Shown: one piece after another, positions 25,430 through 47,519 of the stretch
Layout: each line of letters starts with the position of its first letter
How positions within the stretch are numbered: the first letter of the stretch is position 1
Source of the DNA: Minisyncoccota bacterium
GTDB lineage: Bacteria > Patescibacteriota > Minisyncoccia > Phycocordibacterales > WO2-35-19
Length of the DNA: 64,000 nt
Direction: 5' to 3'
Assembly (NCBI GenBank): GCA_036517255.1
Contig: DATDXE010000017.1
Coordinates: 39,599 to 103,598, forward strand
Notes under the pieces: generated by a model
The model's input: the letters and a program-made list of their open reading frames with translations, nothing else
Told to the model about the DNA's origin: nothing
The model's database searches: none
Made by a program: the position numbers and the translations under genes

Positions 25430-27538
25430 ATGTATCTCAAGTCTTTAGAAATATCAGGTTTTAAGAGCTTTGCTAAGAAAAGTAGTCTTGATTTCAAGTC
25501 GGCTGTAACAGCGATTGTCGGTCCTAATGGAAGTGGTAAGAGTAATGTGGCCGAAGCCTTTCGGTTTGTGCTGGGGGAACAGTCTATAAAAAGCATGAGA
25601 GGCAAAAAAGGTGAAGATTTGATTTGGAATGGTAGTGAGGAACAGCCGCGGGCTAACAGAGCTCTAGTCAAAGCGATTTTCGATAATAAAAAAAAGATTT
25701 TTAATTTAGATTTTGATGAAGTGAGTATCGAAAGAGTAGTTAACCGCGATGGTGTTAATGAGTATTCTATAAACGGTACTCAAGTTCGTCTGAAAGATGT
25801 TTTAGAGCTTTTGGCGGGAGCCCATGTTGGCGCTTCTGGCCATCATATTATTTCTCAGGGAGAGGCGGACAGGATTTTGACATCTAGTATCAAGGAGAGA
25901 AGATCCATGATAGAGGATGCTCTGGGACTAAAAGTTTATCAGTATAAAAGAGTCGAGAGTGAACGCAAACTTGAAAAAACTTTTGAAAATATTTCTCAAG
26001 TGGAGTCTCTCCGTAGGGAAATAGCTCCCCATCTACGATTTCTGAAGAAGCAAATGGAAAAAATCGATAAAGCATTGGAAGTAAAGGATGGACTTACGCA
26101 GATATACAGGGAATATTTAAAAAGGGAAAGTGTTTTTATCGAGTATGAAAAAGCAAACTTAGCTCTTGAGAAAAAACCTTTATTTGAAAGGCAGGAGAGT
26201 CTGAAAAAAAATACTGAAAATCATAAAATATTTGAGATAGAAGCTAATATAAAAAAAGAGAGACAGGAGAAGGACACTCTCTCTCGAGAGGCAGGCAGGT
26301 TGGAAGGTGAGATAGCAGCCAGTCAAAAATTGATTGATAAAACAAGACGAGAAATAAATGAGAGAGAAAATATTACCATTTCTATAAAAGAAATTGAAAA
26401 ATTGTTTCAAGAAATTGAGATAGTGAATGAGATAGTAGAGATAAAAAAGATAATAAGGGGGTTTCTTGATAGTAAAAGGGTCATAAACGGAGAGTCTCTC
26501 TTGAAAGAGGCCGAGGAATCGGTACTAGATTTAAAAAGGAGGAAGGAAGAAATAGAACGACAAATCCAAGAAAAAGAATCAAACATCAGAAATCTAGAAA
26601 GTTTGGAAAGAGAAGTTTTACAACTTTCTTCTCAGGCTGATGTTATCAAATCCCAAATTGAATCTCTTCATAATAAAGAAGAGAGATTACGCGCCATTGA
26701 GGGGGATTTCTTGCGTGAAGTAGAGGAGGCTAGTGTGCTTTTAGGTGTTGCTGTTACTGGATTTAATAATCTTGATATTAGTCGAGAACAAATATTAGGT
26801 GAAGAACGAAAAGTTCAAGAAGAAAGGAGGAGGGAAGTAGAGAGGATGAAAATACGATTGGAAGAGCTCGGGGCCTCTGGAGGTGAGGATACAGTAAAAG
26901 AATTTAGAGAAGCAACTGAGAGAGATGCTTTTTTGGAACGGGAACTTGCTGATCTTTATAAATCATCTGATTCTTTGAAAACGATGATAGCCGAATTGCA
27001 AGATAGGCTTAATACAGAATTTAATCAAGGTATAAGCAAAATAAACTCAGCTTTTCAAAACTTCTTTGAATTAATGTTTGGCGGGGGAACCGCTCGTCTT
27101 GAACTTGTCCAAGAAAAAAGCCAAGTTGAGGGAGATTTGGAAGAAGGCTTTGCCCCGAGAAACTCGATCGAAGAGAAGAGCGAAGTGGGGATAGAGATAG
27201 ATGTTTCGCTACCCAAGAAGCGTATACGAGGTCTCAATATGCTCTCGGGAGGGGAAAGGGCTCTTACTTCTATTGCTTTGCTTTTTGCCATGTCCCAGGT
27301 CAATCCACCTCCATTTATTATTTTAGACGAAACCGATGCTGCACTGGACGAAGCAAATTCTAGAAAATACGGTGATATGATAGCTGCTCTTTCTAAGTAT
27401 TCTCAGCTCATCCTCATCACTCACAACCGCGAAACTATGTCCCGTGCTGGTGTCATTTACGGCGTCACTATGGGCAGCTCTGGCATCTCCAAACTTCTCT
27501 CCATCGAATTTGCTGAAGCTGTCGCGGTGGCGAAGTAA
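25430..27538 (+). CDS. smc: SMC-family ATPase, short (702 aa), no recognisable hinge domain
   Basis: N-terminal …FKSFAKKSSLDFKSAVTAIVGPNGSGKSNVAEAFRFVLGEQS…; C-terminal …LSGGERALTSIALLFAM…ILDETDAALDEAN…ITHNRETMSRAGVIYGVTM; coiled-coil middle. Confidence 0.7.
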   Translation: MYLKSLEISGFKSFAKKSSLDFKSAVTAIVGPNGSGKSNVAEAFRFVLGEQSIKSMRGKKGEDLIWNGSEEQPRANRALVKAIFDNKKKIFNLDFDEVSIERVVNRDGVNEYSINGTQVRLKDVLELLAGAHVGASGHHIISQGEADRILTSSIKERRSMIEDALGLKVYQYKRVESERKLEKTFENISQVESLRREIAPHLRFLKKQMEKIDKALEVKDGLTQIYREYLKRESVFIEYEKANLALEKKPLFERQESLKKNTENHKIFEIEANIKKERQEKDTLSREAGRLEGEIAASQKLIDKTRREINERENITISIKEIEKLFQEIEIVNEIVEIKKIIRGFLDSKRVINGESLLKEAEESVLDLKRRKEEIERQIQEKESNIRNLESLEREVLQLSSQADVIKSQIESLHNKEERLRAIEGDFLREVEEASVLLGVAVTGFNNLDISREQILGEERKVQEERRREVERMKIRLEELGASGGEDTVKEFREATERDAFLERELADLYKSSDSLKTMIAELQDRLNTEFNQGISKINSAFQNFFELMFGGGTARLELVQEKSQVEGDLEEGFAPRNSIEEKSEVGIEIDVSLPKKRIRGLNMLSGGERALTSIALLFAMSQVNPPPFIILDETDAALDEANSRKYGDMIAALSKYSQLILITHNRETMSRAGVIYGVTMGSSGISKLLSIEFAEAVAVAK

Positions 27539-27555
27539 ATGATAGTCTGTAAGAA

Positions 27556-29229
27556 ATGTCACCTATTCGTTTTGAGATAGAAAAGAAAATCCCAAATTCC
27601 CTCGGGCGGGCCGGTAGGTTGAGTACACCTCATGGAGATATTTTGACTCCTGCTTTTGTAGCAGTCGGAACGAAAGGGACAGTGAAATCGCTTACTCCAG
27701 AAGAGATAAGAGAAGCGGGAAGTCAGGTCGTGCTTGCAAATACTTATCATCTCTATCTGCAGCCAGGGGATAAGATAATTAAAGAGGCAGGAGGATTACA
27801 TAAATTTATGAATTGGGGTGGCCCCACTTTCACTGATTCTGGCGGTTTCCAAGCTTTCTCTCTCGGTGTAGCTTATGGTAACGGGATAGGGAAGTTTATA
27901 GCCGCAAATGAACCTGATCAGGAGATAATGGAAAGATTGAAAGAAGAAAATAAGCCCGCCCGCCTCGATAACGAGAGCGTTTCGGGCGGGGAAAAATTAG
28001 CAGAAAGAAAATCGAAGGTAACAGAAGAAGGAGTGGAATTTGTATCAGTGCTCGATGGCAGTAAACATTTTATGTCACCGGAAGACTCTATAAGAATTCA
28101 GAATGACATTGGAGCTGATATGATATTTGCTCTGGACGAATTTACTTCTCCTCATGCCGATCACGCAAAGATAAAAGCGACTATTGAAAGGACAGAAAGA
28201 TGGGCGAAGAGGTGTTTGGAGGCGCATAAGAAGGGCCTCACCCCCGACCCCTCTCCCAAGGAGAGGGGGGATCGCTTCGGTTGGGATACTGCGATTAAGC
28301 TTAAGTTTAGGAACTTACAGGAGCAAGCACTTTTATTTAGAAAGAACCCAACAGAAGCTGAAAAGATTTTATGGGAGCGTTTGAGAGGCAATTTCAATGG
28401 TCTTCATTTTAGGAGACAACATGTTGTGGGACATTTTATAGTAGATTTTGTGTGTTTGGCTAATGGATTAGTCATTGAAGTTGATGGTGATATTCACGAT
28501 GATCAAGTAGAGAGAGATCAAGAAAGGACAAATTTCTTAGAACAATCCGGTTTTAAAGTTGTTAGATTCAGAAATGAAGAAGTTCTGAATAATGTCGACG
28601 TTGTTATAAAACAGATTATCGGCATTTTGAAAGCCCTCCCCTTGGGGGAGGGTTTGGGAGGGGCCTCTTCCCAAGCTCTCTTCGGCATCGTCCAGGGCGG
28701 TCGGCATGAGGATTTGCGCAAGCAGTCGGCCAAGTCGATCGGTAATATGGATTTCGATGGTTTTGGTATTGGCGGTACTTTCGTGAAAGAAGATATGGCG
28801 ACGGCAGTGCATTGGGTAAACGAAGTTTTGCCAGAAGAAAAACCACGACACCTTCTCGGGGTGGGGGAGCCTGTGGATTTAATTTTAGGCGTGGAAGAAG
28901 GTTGTGATACTTTCGATTGTGTTGCTCCCACCCGTATTGCTCGCAACGGTACTCTTTATACTCGCAACGGAAAAATAAATATTACAAACGCAAAATACAG
29001 TAATTTTTTTGAGCCGATAGAAAAGGGTTGTGGCTGTTATACTTGCAAGAATTATACGTGTGCTTATGTGTCGCACTTATTTCGGGCTAAAGAAATGCTT
29101 GCGGCCACTCTCGCTAGTATCCACAATCTCTATTTTTTGAATAATCTCATGACTGAAATTCGGCAGAGCATTCTAGATGGTAAATTTACTGAATTAAAAG
29201 AAGAATTTTTAGGTAAGTATAAATCTTAA
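27556..29229 (+). CDS. tgt: Queuine tRNA-ribosyltransferase (tRNA-guanine transglycosylase) carrying an in-frame ~145-aa DUF559 endonuclease-like insertion
   Basis: Tgt N-terminal block (…LTPAFVAVGTKGTVKSL…LANTYHLYLQPG…FTDSGGFQ…), central …ALFGIVQGG…FDGFGIGG…, C-terminal Zn site CGCYTCKNYTCAYVSHL; inserted segment matches the DUF559 signature. Confidence 0.8.
   Translation: MSPIRFEIEKKIPNSLGRAGRLSTPHGDILTPAFVAVGTKGTVKSLTPEEIREAGSQVVLANTYHLYLQPGDKIIKEAGGLHKFMNWGGPTFTDSGGFQAFSLGVAYGNGIGKFIAANEPDQEIMERLKEENKPARLDNESVSGGEKLAERKSKVTEEGVEFVSVLDGSKHFMSPEDSIRIQNDIGADMIFALDEFTSPHADHAKIKATIERTERWAKRCLEAHKKGLTPDPSPKERGDRFGWDTAIKLKFRNLQEQALLFRKNPTEAEKILWERLRGNFNGLHFRRQHVVGHFIVDFVCLANGLVIEVDGDIHDDQVERDQERTNFLEQSGFKVVRFRNEEVLNNVDVVIKQIIGILKALPLGEGLGGASSQALFGIVQGGRHEDLRKQSAKSIGNMDFDGFGIGGTFVKEDMATAVHWVNEVLPEEKPRHLLGVGEPVDLILGVEEGCDTFDCVAPTRIARNGTLYTRNGKINITNAKYSNFFEPIEKGCGCYTCKNYTCAYVSHLFRAKEMLAATLASIHNLYFLNNLMTEIRQSILDGKFTELKEEFLGKYKS
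27954..27991. repeat. GC-rich palindrome GCCCGCCCG-N20-CGGGCGGGG lying in-frame in the tgt 5' region
   Basis: Read directly; encodes …KPARLDNESVSGGEK…. Confidence 0.45.
28232..28672 (+). mobile_element. DUF559 (Vsr/restriction-endonuclease-like) domain insertion inside tgt, bounded by GC-rich hairpins (28248-28268 CCCCTCTCC/GAGAGGGG; 28634-28652 CCCTCCC/GGGAGGG)
   Basis: …EAEKILWERLRGNFNGLHFRRQHVVGHFIVDFVCLANGLVIEVDGDIHD…RDQERTNFLEQSGFKVVRFRNEEV… is the DUF559 signature; visibly GC-richer than flanks; reading frame of tgt preserved. Confidence 0.55.
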
Positions 29230-29258
29230 TTTCTTGCTATCATTGAAGGCTTATTTAT

Positions 29259-31340
29259 ATGCACGGTAAATTCAAAATAAAAAGTACCCATAAACCTGCT
29301 GGGGATCAACCGAAGGCTATAGAGAGTTTAGTGAAAGGATTGAAGAAAGGTTTGAGCAGTCAGACCCTTTTAGGTGTAACGGGAAGCGGTAAGACATTTA
29401 CGATGGCTAATGTCATAGAAGCCGTGCAAAAACCGACTCTTGTCATTGCTCATAATAAGACATTAGCTGCTCAATTAGCTCAAGAGTATCGAGAATTTTT
29501 TCCCGATAACGCTGTGCATTATTTTGTCTCTTATTACGATTTCTACCAGCCAGAAGCCTATATGCCAGTCACCGACACTTATATAGAGAAAGAGGCCATG
29601 ATCAATGAGGAAATAGAAAGATTGCGTCATGCTTCGACTCAGGCACTCTTGACCAGGAAAGACGTGATAATAGTCGCTTCAGTATCGTGCATTTATGGTT
29701 TAGGCAGTCCTGAAGAATACGAAAAAGTAAACCTTAAAATAATAAAAGACCAAAAAATTGCTCGGGGAGATTTTATGCGCAATCTGATAGCTATACATTA
29801 TGAAAGGACTACCCTCGATCTGAAATCTGGCTTTTTTCGGGCTCTTGGGAATACAATCGAGGTCATTCCAGTCTCAGAGAATAATATTTACAGAATAGAA
29901 ATTGCAGAAGACAGGATCCAAAAAATCCAGAAGATAGATGCTATCACTAGACAAGTAATAGAAGAGCCAGAAACATTTTATTTGTTTCCTGCAAAACACT
30001 TTATTACGAGTGACGAGAAGCTCAAGGTTGCATTCAAAACTATAAAATCCGAACTAAGCGATCAACTAAAGAAGTTTGAAAAAGAAGGCAAAATTCTAGA
30101 AGCCGATAGGCTGAAAAGAAGAACAAGTTATGATCTCGCTATGATAAAAGAGATAGGCTATTGTAATGGTATTGAAAATTATTCTCGTCATTTTGATGGG
30201 AGATCAGTCGGTGAACCAGCTCACACTCTTCTATCGTATTTTCCACGCACTTCCGATGGAAAGTCCGATTTTCTCACTATAATAGATGAGTCGCATGTTA
30301 CTGTTCCTCAAATCGGAGCGATGTACGCTGGGGATCAAGCGAGGAAAGCAACATTGGTGGAACATGGTTTTAGATTGCCATCAGCGAAAGATAATCGTCC
30401 TCTCAGGTTTGAAGAGTTTGAACAGAGAGTGGGACAAGTAATTTATACTTCAGCTACTCCTGCCAAATATGAAATCGAACATAGTCAAAACGTCGCCGAG
30501 CAGGTTATTCGACCAACTGGTCTTATTGATCCAGAGGTAAGCATCCGGCCGATCACGGGAAGTTACCAAGGGTCACCCTTGGCCGGAGCCCTTGGGCCAA
30601 AGGTGACCCTTGGTAACCAAGCAAGATATCAGGGCCAAATCCAAGATTTCATTAAGGAAGCTGAAAAGGATGTAAAAAAGGGGGGTAGAGCTATTGCCAC
30701 TACTCTTACTAAGAAGATGGCTGAAGACCTTTCAGAATACTTGAAGGATAAAAAAATAAAAGCAGAGTACTTACATAGCGATATTAAAACAATAGAGAGA
30801 ATAGAGATACTAACAAAATTTAGGAGGGGTTCAAAGAATGGAGGGTTTGATGTGCTTGTGGGTGTAAATCTTTTGCGGGAAGGACTCGACCTGCCAGAAG
30901 TTTCCTTCATCGGAATTTTGGATGCCGATAAAGAAGGTTTCCTGCGAAGCGAAACTTCACTTATTCAAATCATCGGTCGTGCCGCCAGGAATGTGGACGG
31001 TAGAGTCGTCCTTTATGCTGATCGTGTCACTGGTTCTATGGAAAGAGCAATAGGGGAAACCAATCGTCGTCGAGCTATTCAGCTTGAATACAATGAAAAG
31101 CATGGTATTACTCCGCAAACTATCATAAAAGAAATCAAAGATATTACTGATCAACTTCAAAAAGGGCACAGAGAGGTGGTGGGGGCGCTCCTCAAAATTG
31201 ATTCTAAAAATAAAAATATTCCAAAACTTATCCGCACCAAAGAAAAACAAATGAATGCCTCGGTCAAAATCCTTGACTTCGAAACTGCCGCTATCCTCAG
31301 GGATGAAATAAAAGAGCTAGAGAAAATAGCCTCTAAGTAG
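29259..31340 (+). CDS. uvrB: Excinuclease ABC subunit B
   Basis: …LLGVTGSGKTFTMANVI…, helicase motifs, C-terminal UVR motif; in-frame palindromic insertion at 30561-30618. Confidence 0.9.
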   Translation: MHGKFKIKSTHKPAGDQPKAIESLVKGLKKGLSSQTLLGVTGSGKTFTMANVIEAVQKPTLVIAHNKTLAAQLAQEYREFFPDNAVHYFVSYYDFYQPEAYMPVTDTYIEKEAMINEEIERLRHASTQALLTRKDVIIVASVSCIYGLGSPEEYEKVNLKIIKDQKIARGDFMRNLIAIHYERTTLDLKSGFFRALGNTIEVIPVSENNIYRIEIAEDRIQKIQKIDAITRQVIEEPETFYLFPAKHFITSDEKLKVAFKTIKSELSDQLKKFEKEGKILEADRLKRRTSYDLAMIKEIGYCNGIENYSRHFDGRSVGEPAHTLLSYFPRTSDGKSDFLTIIDESHVTVPQIGAMYAGDQARKATLVEHGFRLPSAKDNRPLRFEEFEQRVGQVIYTSATPAKYEIEHSQNVAEQVIRPTGLIDPEVSIRPITGSYQGSPLAGALGPKVTLGNQARYQGQIQDFIKEAEKDVKKGGRAIATTLTKKMAEDLSEYLKDKKIKAEYLHSDIKTIERIEILTKFRRGSKNGGFDVLVGVNLLREGLDLPEVSFIGILDADKEGFLRSETSLIQIIGRAARNVDGRVVLYADRVTGSMERAIGETNRRRAIQLEYNEKHGITPQTIIKEIKDITDQLQKGHREVVGALLKIDSKNKNIPKLIRTKEKQMNASVKILDFETAAILRDEIKELEKIASK
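30561..30618. repeat. Two tandem copies of the palindromic element (CCAAGGGTCACCCTTGG at 30565-30581; CCAAAGGTGACCCTTGG at 30596-30612) in-frame inside uvrB
   Basis: Read directly; encodes …GSYQGSPLAGALGPKVTLGNQ…. Confidence 0.6.
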
Positions 31341-40764: not shown

Positions 40765-40929
40765 TAATTCTGCTCTCGCTTTGACCAGTTAGGCTCTGAC
40801 TTCCCTTATAAAGGAAAGGTCCGGTAAGAAACCAGACTTGTATACATTATACACCTATTCAACCTTGCTGTCAATAGTAATCTGTGGTCAAATAATTTGA
40901 CCCGAAAAAGACTCAAGAATAAGCCTAAA

Positions 40930-40978
40930 ATACCAAGGATGACCTTCAGGCTGCTGTACTGAGGGTCATCCTTGGTAT
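40930..40978. repeat. Palindromic element copy ATACCAAGGATGACC-N19-GGTCATCCTTGGTAT immediately 3' of the surface-protein gene
   Basis: 15-bp inverted arms read directly. Confidence 0.55.
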
Positions 40979-40983
40979 TTTTT

Positions 40984-47463: not shown

Positions 47464-47473
47464 ATTAACCAAT

Positions 47474-47515
47474 AACCAAGGATGACCCTTGGTATACCAA
47501 GGGTCATCCTTGGTT
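47474..47515. repeat. Perfect 42-nt palindrome made of two opposed element copies (AACCAAGGATGACCCTTGGTA | TACCAAGGGTCATCCTTGGTT) between convergent genes
   Basis: Reverse complement of the 21-nt left arm equals the right arm exactly. Confidence 0.65.
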
Positions 47516-47519
47516 AAGC

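Follow-up and report, generated by a model that had tools for sequence, protein, structure and literature searches.

REPtrons consist of a RAYT (REP-associated tyrosine transposase) gene placed between inverted GC-rich repetitive extragenic palindromic (REP) hairpins, and hairpin derivatives of these units that carry no open reading frame (ORF) exist as well. RAYTs are HUH/Y1 enzymes, and REPs are dispersed, with tens to hundreds of extragenic copies. Rickettsia palindromic elements (RPEs) are found in-frame in unrelated housekeeping genes, are translated and are predicted to be compatible with both fold and function of the host protein (PMC10969869). A Vsr-related fold is known from the EDxHD homing endonuclease I-Bth0305I (PMC3239194); 3r3p, a homing endonuclease of a group I intron, has been grouped with Vsr and DUF559 (PMC3424549), and free-standing DUF559/Vsr-like proteins are discussed as repair nucleases (PMC12907096). 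Here we analysed a 64,000-nucleotide stretch of DNA from a Minisyncoccota bacterium (contig DATDXE010000017.1, positions 39,599 to 103,598; referred to as the window), in which tgt, the gene of queuine tRNA-ribosyltransferase (Tgt), contains an in-frame insert encoding a DUF559 nuclease domain between hairpin-containing inverted repeats. It is rather probable, in our judgement, that this insert is a selfish autonomous DNA cassette showing homing-like spread with rare ectopic jumps, and not a domain of Tgt.

The DUF559 cassette of the window and its host gene

As originally predicted, a DUF559 domain lies in-frame within tgt, one ORF comprising both (Table 1). The hidden Markov model (HMM) of Pfam PF04480 gave a strong match, with E = 1.4e-33 and 115 bits (cutoff 20.6) in full-length Tgt and with E = 1.3e-34 when the insert alone was used (bit scores 115–119 overall), and the solved DUF559 protein 3hrl matched aa 266–361 with E = 1e-19. 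The full family signature was likewise present, as the insert keeps all 16 invariant DUF559 columns (T, E, W, RQ, DF.C, E.DG..H, D..R and R..N) of a 41-sequence DUF559 alignment, which are the residues invariant in free-standing DUF559 proteins, its central motif reading IEVDGDIH (E-x-D-G-x-x-H). The motifs were conserved in all 14 Tgt inserts detected among relatives of this protein (see below) and in 61 embedded copies, and this conservation suggests that the nuclease of the cassette is probably active. In Caulobacter cells that have no cytosine methyltransferase ScmA, an SOS response is caused by a DUF559 protein, VsrA (PMC12907096).

The boundaries of the cassette were set by reading the junctions and by matching its right end, as the reverse complement, to its left end; they were also taken from empty alleles, for example P0019, where 'HKKEDQALFG' corresponds to 'HKK-insert-SSQALFG' of the window. 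An in-frame insert of about 145 residues, as had been proposed, was thus confirmed in kind and refined in its limits (Table 1). Its reading frame holds neither an in-frame ATG nor a stop codon. The two hairpins occupy the positions originally given for them and do flank the insert, although they turned out to be parts of terminal inverted repeats of roughly 32–35 nt instead of forming the boundaries by themselves. They are mutually inverted repeats (25 nt, 84% complementary) and the only two hairpin sites of this type in the 64 kb, where 0.02 would be expected by chance. Their folding energies, when compared with shuffled sequences (z = −2.3 and −0.8), were unremarkable for the composition, and since this evidence is weak, the significance of the hairpins is drawn from their conservation across elements. 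The claim of a much higher GC content in the insert than in tgt did not hold: in 150-nt windows the GC content was about 0.52–0.55 at the ends of the cassette alone, compared with 0.35 in the DUF559 core and about 0.44 in tgt. Within the 64-kb window, neither the hairpins nor DUF559 were found a second time, and there was no solo end elsewhere.

The frame, Zn site and catalytic residues of Tgt proved to be intact. Pfam TGT matched the 557 aa product with E = 1.4e-138, the match being divided over three stretches, and the solved Tgt structures in the PDB (E ~1e-91) covered query aa 14–104, 154–222 and 371–551. As this alignment skips the DUF559 segment, the latter takes the place of a loop of approximately six residues. 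The catalytic and Zn-binding residues D94, D194, D441, C492, C494, C497 and H523 are invariant alignment columns, so that the TGT fold, the catalytic Asp residues and the Cys3-His Zn site of bacterial Tgts are all present, and from these the Tgt carrying the insert would be expected to remain functional. Only three to five codons separate the insert junction from the invariant LFGIVQGG block. An AlphaFold2 (AF2) model of Tgt with the insert, calculated from a 148-row alignment, had a mean predicted local distance difference test score (pLDDT) of 86; the Tgt barrel was modelled confidently (pLDDT mostly >90) and DUF559 formed a separate confident domain (aa 246–360, mostly ≥90), with aa 231–242 and 364–369 having a pLDDT <50. 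The terminal repeats are thus predicted to encode largely low-confidence linker peptides here. In the model the insert is situated between helix 203–227 and strand 374–379. Helix-to-strand loops of triosephosphate isomerase (TIM) barrel enzymes lie on the face opposite the active site.

Table 1. Position and composition of the cassette in tgt (coordinates of the window)
Feature	Position	Strand	Description
tgt (queuine tRNA-ribosyltransferase) with insert	27556-29229	+	single unbroken ORF, 557 aa
Whole cassette	28234-28665	+	432 nt, 144 codons, aa 227-370 (GLTPD...LGGA)
Left terminal inverted repeat	28234-28268	+	C-rich box, then hairpin; encodes GLTPDPSPKERG
Left outer C-rich box	28234-28247	+	GGCCTCACCCCCGA
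Left hairpin	28248-28268	+	CCCCTCTCC-CAA-GGAGAGGGG
DUF559 / Vsr-like PD-(D/E)xK nuclease domain	28315-28626	+	aa 254-357, Pfam PF04480
Right terminal inverted repeat	28634-28665	+	hairpin, then G-rich box; encodes LPLGEGLGGA
Right hairpin	28634-28652	+	CCCTCCCC-TTG-GGGGAGGG
Right outer G-rich box	28653-28665	+	TTTGGGAGGGGCC

A second, smaller insert of about 12–17 aa was observed in the same tgt gene at 27955–27990 (aa 134–145), within PARLDNESVSGGEKLAER. It is missing from the 23 other Tgts of the alignment, its DNA holds the inverted repeat CCCGCCCG...CGGGCGGG, and it falls in a Tgt segment specific to the candidate phyla radiation (aa 98–143) that was modelled by AF2 with low confidence. 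Directly upstream of tgt lies an SMC-like ORF (25430–27538, 702 aa). Bacterial SMC proteins are usually longer than this; the recorded product of the SMC-like gene in a syntenic relative, locus L133, has 747 aa.

Distribution of the cassette in tgt and other genes

The original prediction had named an insert shared by all orthologues as the sign of an old domain fusion. This was not observed, as DUF559 occupied the loop in 14 of the 120 best Tgt relatives, all of which are of the Patescibacteria type, the remaining loops comprising 10–60 aa. In these 14 independent assemblies the ORF ran unbroken through the insert. When a neighbour-joining tree was calculated from the Tgt core with the loop removed (without support values), the 14 insert-bearing Tgts occupied at least 11 separate places, and the nearest neighbours of each were insert-free at core identities of 78–94%, for example 94% for P0008/P0042, 93% for P0002/P0023 and 90% for P0004/P0074. 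Core and insert identities were uncorrelated (Spearman 0.135, p = 0.2, 91 pairs), the mean identity being lower for the inserts (56%) than for their hosts (73%). This was most evident for P0006 and P0013, whose cores are 96% identical while their inserts share 54%; in the corresponding DNA (L047 and L048) the tgt flanks are mostly 76–100% identical, and identity falls to 36–70% between '...GAGCATAAAAGA' and 'GGCATCGTCCAAGG', which are the ends of the element. In this pair, two element variants occupy one site of what is nearly one gene. Scanning of species-representative genomes with the Tgt protein yielded 46 tgt loci, none of which had the insert.

Footprints of the cassette were found in alleles without the nuclease. 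The relative L133 encodes P0024, a Tgt of the window's sub-clade, with the same SMC-Tgt-UvrB synteny. It lacks DUF559 and retains AGCCTACCCCTAA-CCCCTCCC-GAA-GGGAGGGG-TTTGGGATGGGTAGGGGCT, corresponding to a left box, one hairpin and a right box. The end hairpins being palindromic, the two ends form direct as well as inverted repeats, and recombination between them predicts exactly this solo-hairpin product, making such recombination a likely route to the footprints. In L134 (P0110) two hairpin units are left without an ORF, and several 'empty' tgt alleles keep remnants of the 'LGGS' or 'GEG' type. Full, degraded and empty states thus appear side by side, as expected of a cycle of gain, decay and loss, and these comparisons show that gain, exchange and loss of the cassette in tgt are independent of host descent.

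The loop between RWAxRC and FGIVQGG in patescibacterial Tgts (P0015–P0120) also holds at least five other recurrent families of short in-frame peptides, namely LEQPGYFSAEKSPHSRASRAPRVALE, KSSSSKSPRVSSLRSARLSSEDFF, KIVPLHPATRDPHGSNF, ENSKLKIENSK and KKSSREQLSERDWRESEGIFQQKNTPVVRENLFS, which are scattered on the Tgt tree; this scatter suggests further small mobile inserts.

Searches with the insert alone found the cassette inside TsaB, leucyl-tRNA synthetase (LeuRS), an AMP-binding enzyme and a polysaccharide-synthesis protein, and as free-standing copies in Bacteroidota, with the same end peptides in both settings. A separate metagenome scan with the DUF559 alignment yielded 80 loci which, together with the window and four tgt loci, made up 85 units. 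Of these, 46 were internal to a long stop-free frame (≥100 aa on each side), nine were fused in-frame upstream of a gene (Gmk, IspF), seven downstream of one (e.g. a PurL-type amidotransferase), and 23 were free-standing. Hosts, as assigned by Pfam, were LeuRS (23 loci, at least three different sites), MetH (eight loci), RecG and an IcmF-like mutase (three loci each), as well as PriA, Acs, TsaB, a CapD-like enzyme, Tgt, an AAA_11/12 helicase and a type ISP enzyme (one locus each); HsdR was the host at one further locus, where the cassette lies near the N-terminus and was counted among the N-fused copies. An exhaustive HMMER search with a limit of E ≤ 1e-3 returned 23,017 clusters (50% identity). 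Among the 150 nearest cluster representatives, about 40% had a length of more than 250 aa, and 61 scanned long representatives gave matches to 79 Pfam families. Cassettes of this type reside in-frame in numerous housekeeping genes of several bacterial phyla. In a neighbour-joining tree of DUF559, again without support values, the Tgt, MetH, RecG and IcmF inserts each formed a clade of their own. The collections of plasmids and phages gave few matches, which were free-standing, with no sign of the cassette travelling on them.

The peptides encoded at the ends were recurrent, PSPKERG or PLPEGEG on the left and LPxGEGLGGAS on the right. The latter recurs in Acs cassettes and in free-standing Mucilaginibacter proteins, and in degraded form (LPFIEDSGQAS) in LeuRS. 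The N-terminus of P0142, a free-standing DUF559 protein of Flavobacterium hauense, is GLTPDPSPKERG and thus identical to the left linker of the window, although the nuclease domains of the two are only 49% identical.

At the DNA level the elements, which measure about 430–500 bp with inverted repeats of roughly 30–38 nt, share a common end plan once the right end is read as its reverse complement: a C-rich box on the outside (consensus ~GCCYCACCCC), 2–4 nt, and a hairpin with a stem of 8–10 bp and a loop of 3–5 nt. Within each element the left end is nearly identical to the reverse-complemented right end, and the ends vary from element to element, with stem variants such as CCCCTCTCC, CCCCTCCC, CCTCCCCC, CCCCCTCC and others keeping the base pairing in each case. 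C-rich hairpins were detected in 119 of 160 flanking windows versus 20 of 682 control windows of the same contigs, a 25-fold enrichment that includes the non-coding flanks of free-standing copies. In-frame copies read the hairpin in all three frames (21/5/10 on the left and 26/7/6 on the right), and in free-standing copies it is often outside the ORF; the hairpin is therefore conserved beyond what the peptide alone would explain, and the ends of the cassette would act at the level of nucleic acid. As each repeat consists of a pyrimidine run followed by a purine run, none of the stop codons TAA, TAG and TGA can fall within the stems, whichever sense frame or orientation is read, and the stems encode peptides of the Pro/Ser/Leu and Gly/Glu/Arg types; hairpin loops that spell TAA or TAG are out of frame in the reading. 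No target-site duplication was consistent across 51 elements, the boundaries of which are fuzzy by a few nt.

Some elements carry extra end hairpins. At the HsdR locus (L094) three are arranged in tandem on the left and two on the right, L078 has two per side, and L047 and L051 each have a second one on the right; the ends can apparently be duplicated themselves. Two or three DUF559 stretches were seen in P0241 (377 aa), P0247, P0249, P0251, P0256, P0258, P0313, P0326 and P0367, which may be tandem or nested cassettes. The near-identical free-standing copies L085, L100, L107 and L125 were considered as signs of recent transposition and rejected, as they represent the same orthologous locus in related strains. 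A free-standing DUF559 gene of a cultured alphaproteobacterium, Azospirillum brasilense (L135, NZ_CP059450.1, 1557103–1557522), is preceded by longer C-rich/G-rich hairpins of the same type, followed by TTAGGGTGGGGGCC, and this organism may serve as a culturable experimental system.

Other palindromes were also noted in the window. At 30562–30617, in uvrB (ORF 29259–31340, plus strand), a near-perfect 56-nt palindrome lies in-frame and encodes SYQGSPLAGALGPKVTLGN, a segment presumably without counterpart in E. coli UvrB. Its two 23-nt arms are 96% complementary, and the surrounding 103 nt fold as RNA with −48 kcal/mol; having no ORF of its own, it looks like an in-frame insert of the RPE type or of the type of miniature transposable elements with inverted repeats (MITEs). 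It belongs to a dispersed palindromic repeat family, its core being ACCAAGG(G/A)T(C/G)A(C/T)CCTTGGT, with four copies in the 64 kb (183–209, 30562–30617, 40927–40981 and 47473–47516), the last of which is a perfect 44-nt palindrome overlapping a 131-aa minus-strand ORF. This family has no sequence relation to the ends of the DUF559 cassette.

Models for the spread of the cassette

The prediction that the insert is a mobile element tolerated in-frame is supported by its patchy occurrence on the Tgt tree, by the uncoupling of insert and host, and by the presence of the same cassette in unrelated genes. In the explanation that we favour, the nuclease would be made only as a Tgt fusion through transcription and translation of the host gene. 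By nicking or cutting, it would stimulate recombination through which empty alleles of that gene receive a copy of the cassette, and new host-gene lineages would arise from rare ectopic jumps. The repeats, being conserved, would be DNA- or RNA-level sites needed for this spread, most plausibly the binding or cutting sites of the nuclease itself. Homing-like spread would explain both the host-gene-specific nuclease clades (Tgt, MetH, RecG and IcmF) and the position beside the invariant LFGIVQGG codons, and is also favoured by the lack of consistent target-site duplications, whereas the conserved, co-varying ends, the wide host range and the intergenic copies with the same ends favour transposon-like movement. 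A mixed model, in which allelic spread by nuclease-stimulated recombination is combined with rare ectopic jumps, was ranked first.

Several observations weigh against this model. Pure homing needs no terminal inverted repeats, yet these are the most conserved DNA feature of the cassette, and the broad host range together with free-standing intergenic copies bearing the same ends is more like a promiscuous transposon. In the DUF559 tree, the LeuRS and Acs inserts nest within the Tgt clade, and the trees are neighbour-joining trees of short domains without support values. The pair P0006/P0013 could stem from recombination between tgt alleles in which the nuclease played no part. That the nuclease is active and Tgt functional is deduced from residue conservation, and the 64-kb window, with its single copy, gives no sign of recent activity in this genome.

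Ends that agree within an element and vary between elements, free-standing intergenic copies with these same ends, a very wide host range with LeuRS struck at three or more sites, the tandem extra hairpins (L094, L078, L047 and L051), the ORF-less, MITE-like derivatives L133 and L134 and the status of the Tgt loop as a general hot spot for unrelated small inserts would all be accounted for by a true transposon, the nuclease of which recognises the hairpin repeats and excises the cassette or copies it to near-random targets, with survival only of those copies that come to lie between genes or in-frame within tolerant loops. The apparent site specificity in tgt would then reflect tolerance of the loop and later recombination between alleles. 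We nevertheless regard this explanation as unlikely, while granting it some weight, because neither a consistent target-site duplication among the 51 elements, within the few nt by which their boundaries are fuzzy, nor a second copy or solo end elsewhere within the window was found, because the nuclease clades largely track the host gene, and because more than 11 independent events at one exact loop would demand extreme selective filtering. Furthermore, no transposase is known to us that is made up of nothing but a PD-(D/E)xK domain some 110 aa long; TnsA depends on TnsB.

It is improbable that the hairpins are REP- or MITE-like repeats moved or recombined in trans by machinery of the host or of other origin, with DUF559 as mere cargo, for example as a repair or defence nuclease. 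Such a passenger would be in keeping with the persistence of ORF-less hairpin remnants, with the ORF-less palindromic inserts lying in-frame in uvrB (30562–30617) and tgt (27955–27990) of the same window, and with the other short repeat families in the Tgt loop of relatives. However, the ends composed of C-rich box and hairpin are closely tied to DUF559 across phyla (119/160 versus 20/682), co-vary with the element and occur nowhere else in the window, and the invariant residues of the nuclease are retained in all in-frame copies examined, in keeping with selection that the element itself exerts on the nuclease.

An old, lineage-specific Tgt fusion inherited vertically with repeated loss, and serving Tgt, for example in nucleic-acid binding or in Dpd-like restriction, appears very improbable. 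The conserved nuclease residues, the maintenance of the frame in 14 proteins and the grouping of the Tgt inserts in the DUF559 tree agree with it, but the distribution is patchy with insert-free sisters at 93–94% core identity, 96% identical cores hold 54% identical inserts, the cassette is also found in LeuRS, MetH, RecG, Acs, TsaB and others, and free-standing copies retain the inverted repeats at non-coding positions. A function specific to Tgt was rejected for the same reason, as LeuRS, MetH and other proteins hold the same cassette, and an assembly artefact was discarded because the insert is present in 14 independent assemblies.

Removal of the segment before the mature, canonical Tgt is formed is next to inconceivable: the ends of the cassette can pair and could loop out the insert in RNA, and bypass elements linked to mobile nucleases are reported from phage T4 (bioRxiv 10.1101/2022.08.31.505936), but neither a Hint nor an intein domain was detected by Pfam, and the cassette starts with Gly-Leu-Thr, where an intein would have Cys, Ser or Thr in first place, and ends with Gly-Gly-Ala|Ser, without the His-Asn of inteins (junctions K|G and A|S). 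The best Rfam match in 27400–29400 was a chance-level small RNA (E = 0.9, 15.9 bits versus a threshold of 37) and no self-splicing intron, 432 nt far exceeds the known bypass of 50 nt, and all copies, though of varied length, preserve the frame without stops, a constraint which would be needless if the segment were spliced or bypassed. The insert is thus, as originally stated, neither an intein nor a known homing-endonuclease architecture.

The mixed model of allelic spread with rare ectopic jumps accordingly remains our preferred explanation for the cassette in tgt. More tentatively, and as a possibility about which we are in some doubt, the cassettes may represent a widespread, previously unrecognised class of autonomous Vsr/DUF559 elements with hairpin inverted repeats that are built for being translated through, the repeat stems being free of stops in all frames and coding for flexible linkers. 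Many of the DUF559 proteins now annotated as 'very short patch repair endonuclease', a sizeable share of the family, would then be this element. If so, besides introns and inteins there would be a third way for nuclease-encoding selfish DNA to colonise essential genes (Tgt, LeuRS, MetH, RecG, PriA and others), namely to stay in the protein harmlessly. Part of DUF559, which numbers approximately 23,000 clusters at 50% identity and has no assigned function, would thereby gain a testable one, and the odd annotation 'methionine synthase/leucyl-tRNA synthetase/helicase' on the 130-aa protein P0125 would be accounted for. Caution would also be advisable with extra domains in housekeeping proteins of Patescibacteria, which may be mobile DNA. 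Domain insertion by mobile DNA can be traced here from full element to footprint, and such natural portable insertion cassettes, along with the loops tolerating them, are potentially useful in protein engineering.

Comparison with known systems

Like RPEs and intragenic MITEs, the cassette is selfish DNA bounded by palindromic or inverted repeats and inserted in-frame. RPEs are, however, about 150 bp long, non-autonomous, enzyme-less and multi-copy in one genus, whereas the cassette comprises 430–500 bp with a complete nuclease domain, is single-copy in the window, and occurs in several phyla with lineages specific to host genes. Inverted repeats and in-frame intragenic insertion were thus both found, and the non-autonomous, multi-copy state typical of MITEs and RPEs was not, within the 64-kb window.

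With the homing endonuclease genes of inteins and introns the cassette shares a nuclease insert at conserved sites, a sporadic occurrence, here at one site, and an insert history incongruent with and uncoupled from that of the host. In contrast to these genes, it is housed neither in a splicing element nor in a free-standing gene at this locus: it lies in-frame in the host ORF and stays in the protein. Its ends, moreover, are conserved terminal inverted repeats with hairpins, a feature that is dispensable for homing elements. The motif of I-Bth0305I is E-D-x-H-D as opposed to E-x-D-G-x-x-H in the cassette, and the I-Bth0305I structure 3r3p was not among the PDB matches at E ≤ 1e-3. Moreover, EDxHD enzymes have an N-terminal DNA-binding domain, for which the linkers of the cassette leave no space in the AF2 model.

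The REPtron resembles the cassette in having a single nuclease-type gene between two inverted GC-rich hairpins. It differs in that the sole domain of the cassette is of the PD-(D/E)xK type, that its ends are found within the 64 kb at the cassette only, and that the cassette, unlike REPtrons, is translated through within host proteins. The free-standing DUF559/Vsr proteins, such as 3hrl of N. gonorrhoeae, Caulobacter VsrA and E. coli Vsr, belong to the same family with the same invariant residues. They stand alone, whereas the domain of the cassette lies embedded in Tgt, with neither a start nor a stop codon. The terminal repeats are also found on many free-standing relatives, so that this element may itself make up part of the DUF559 family. 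Open-access papers and preprints were searched, and none was found that describes DUF559 in the form of a mobile cassette lying in-frame. As at least one defining feature of each is absent from the cassette, it is set apart from RPEs, homing genes and REPtrons alike, and the chance that it should form a separate class is substantial.

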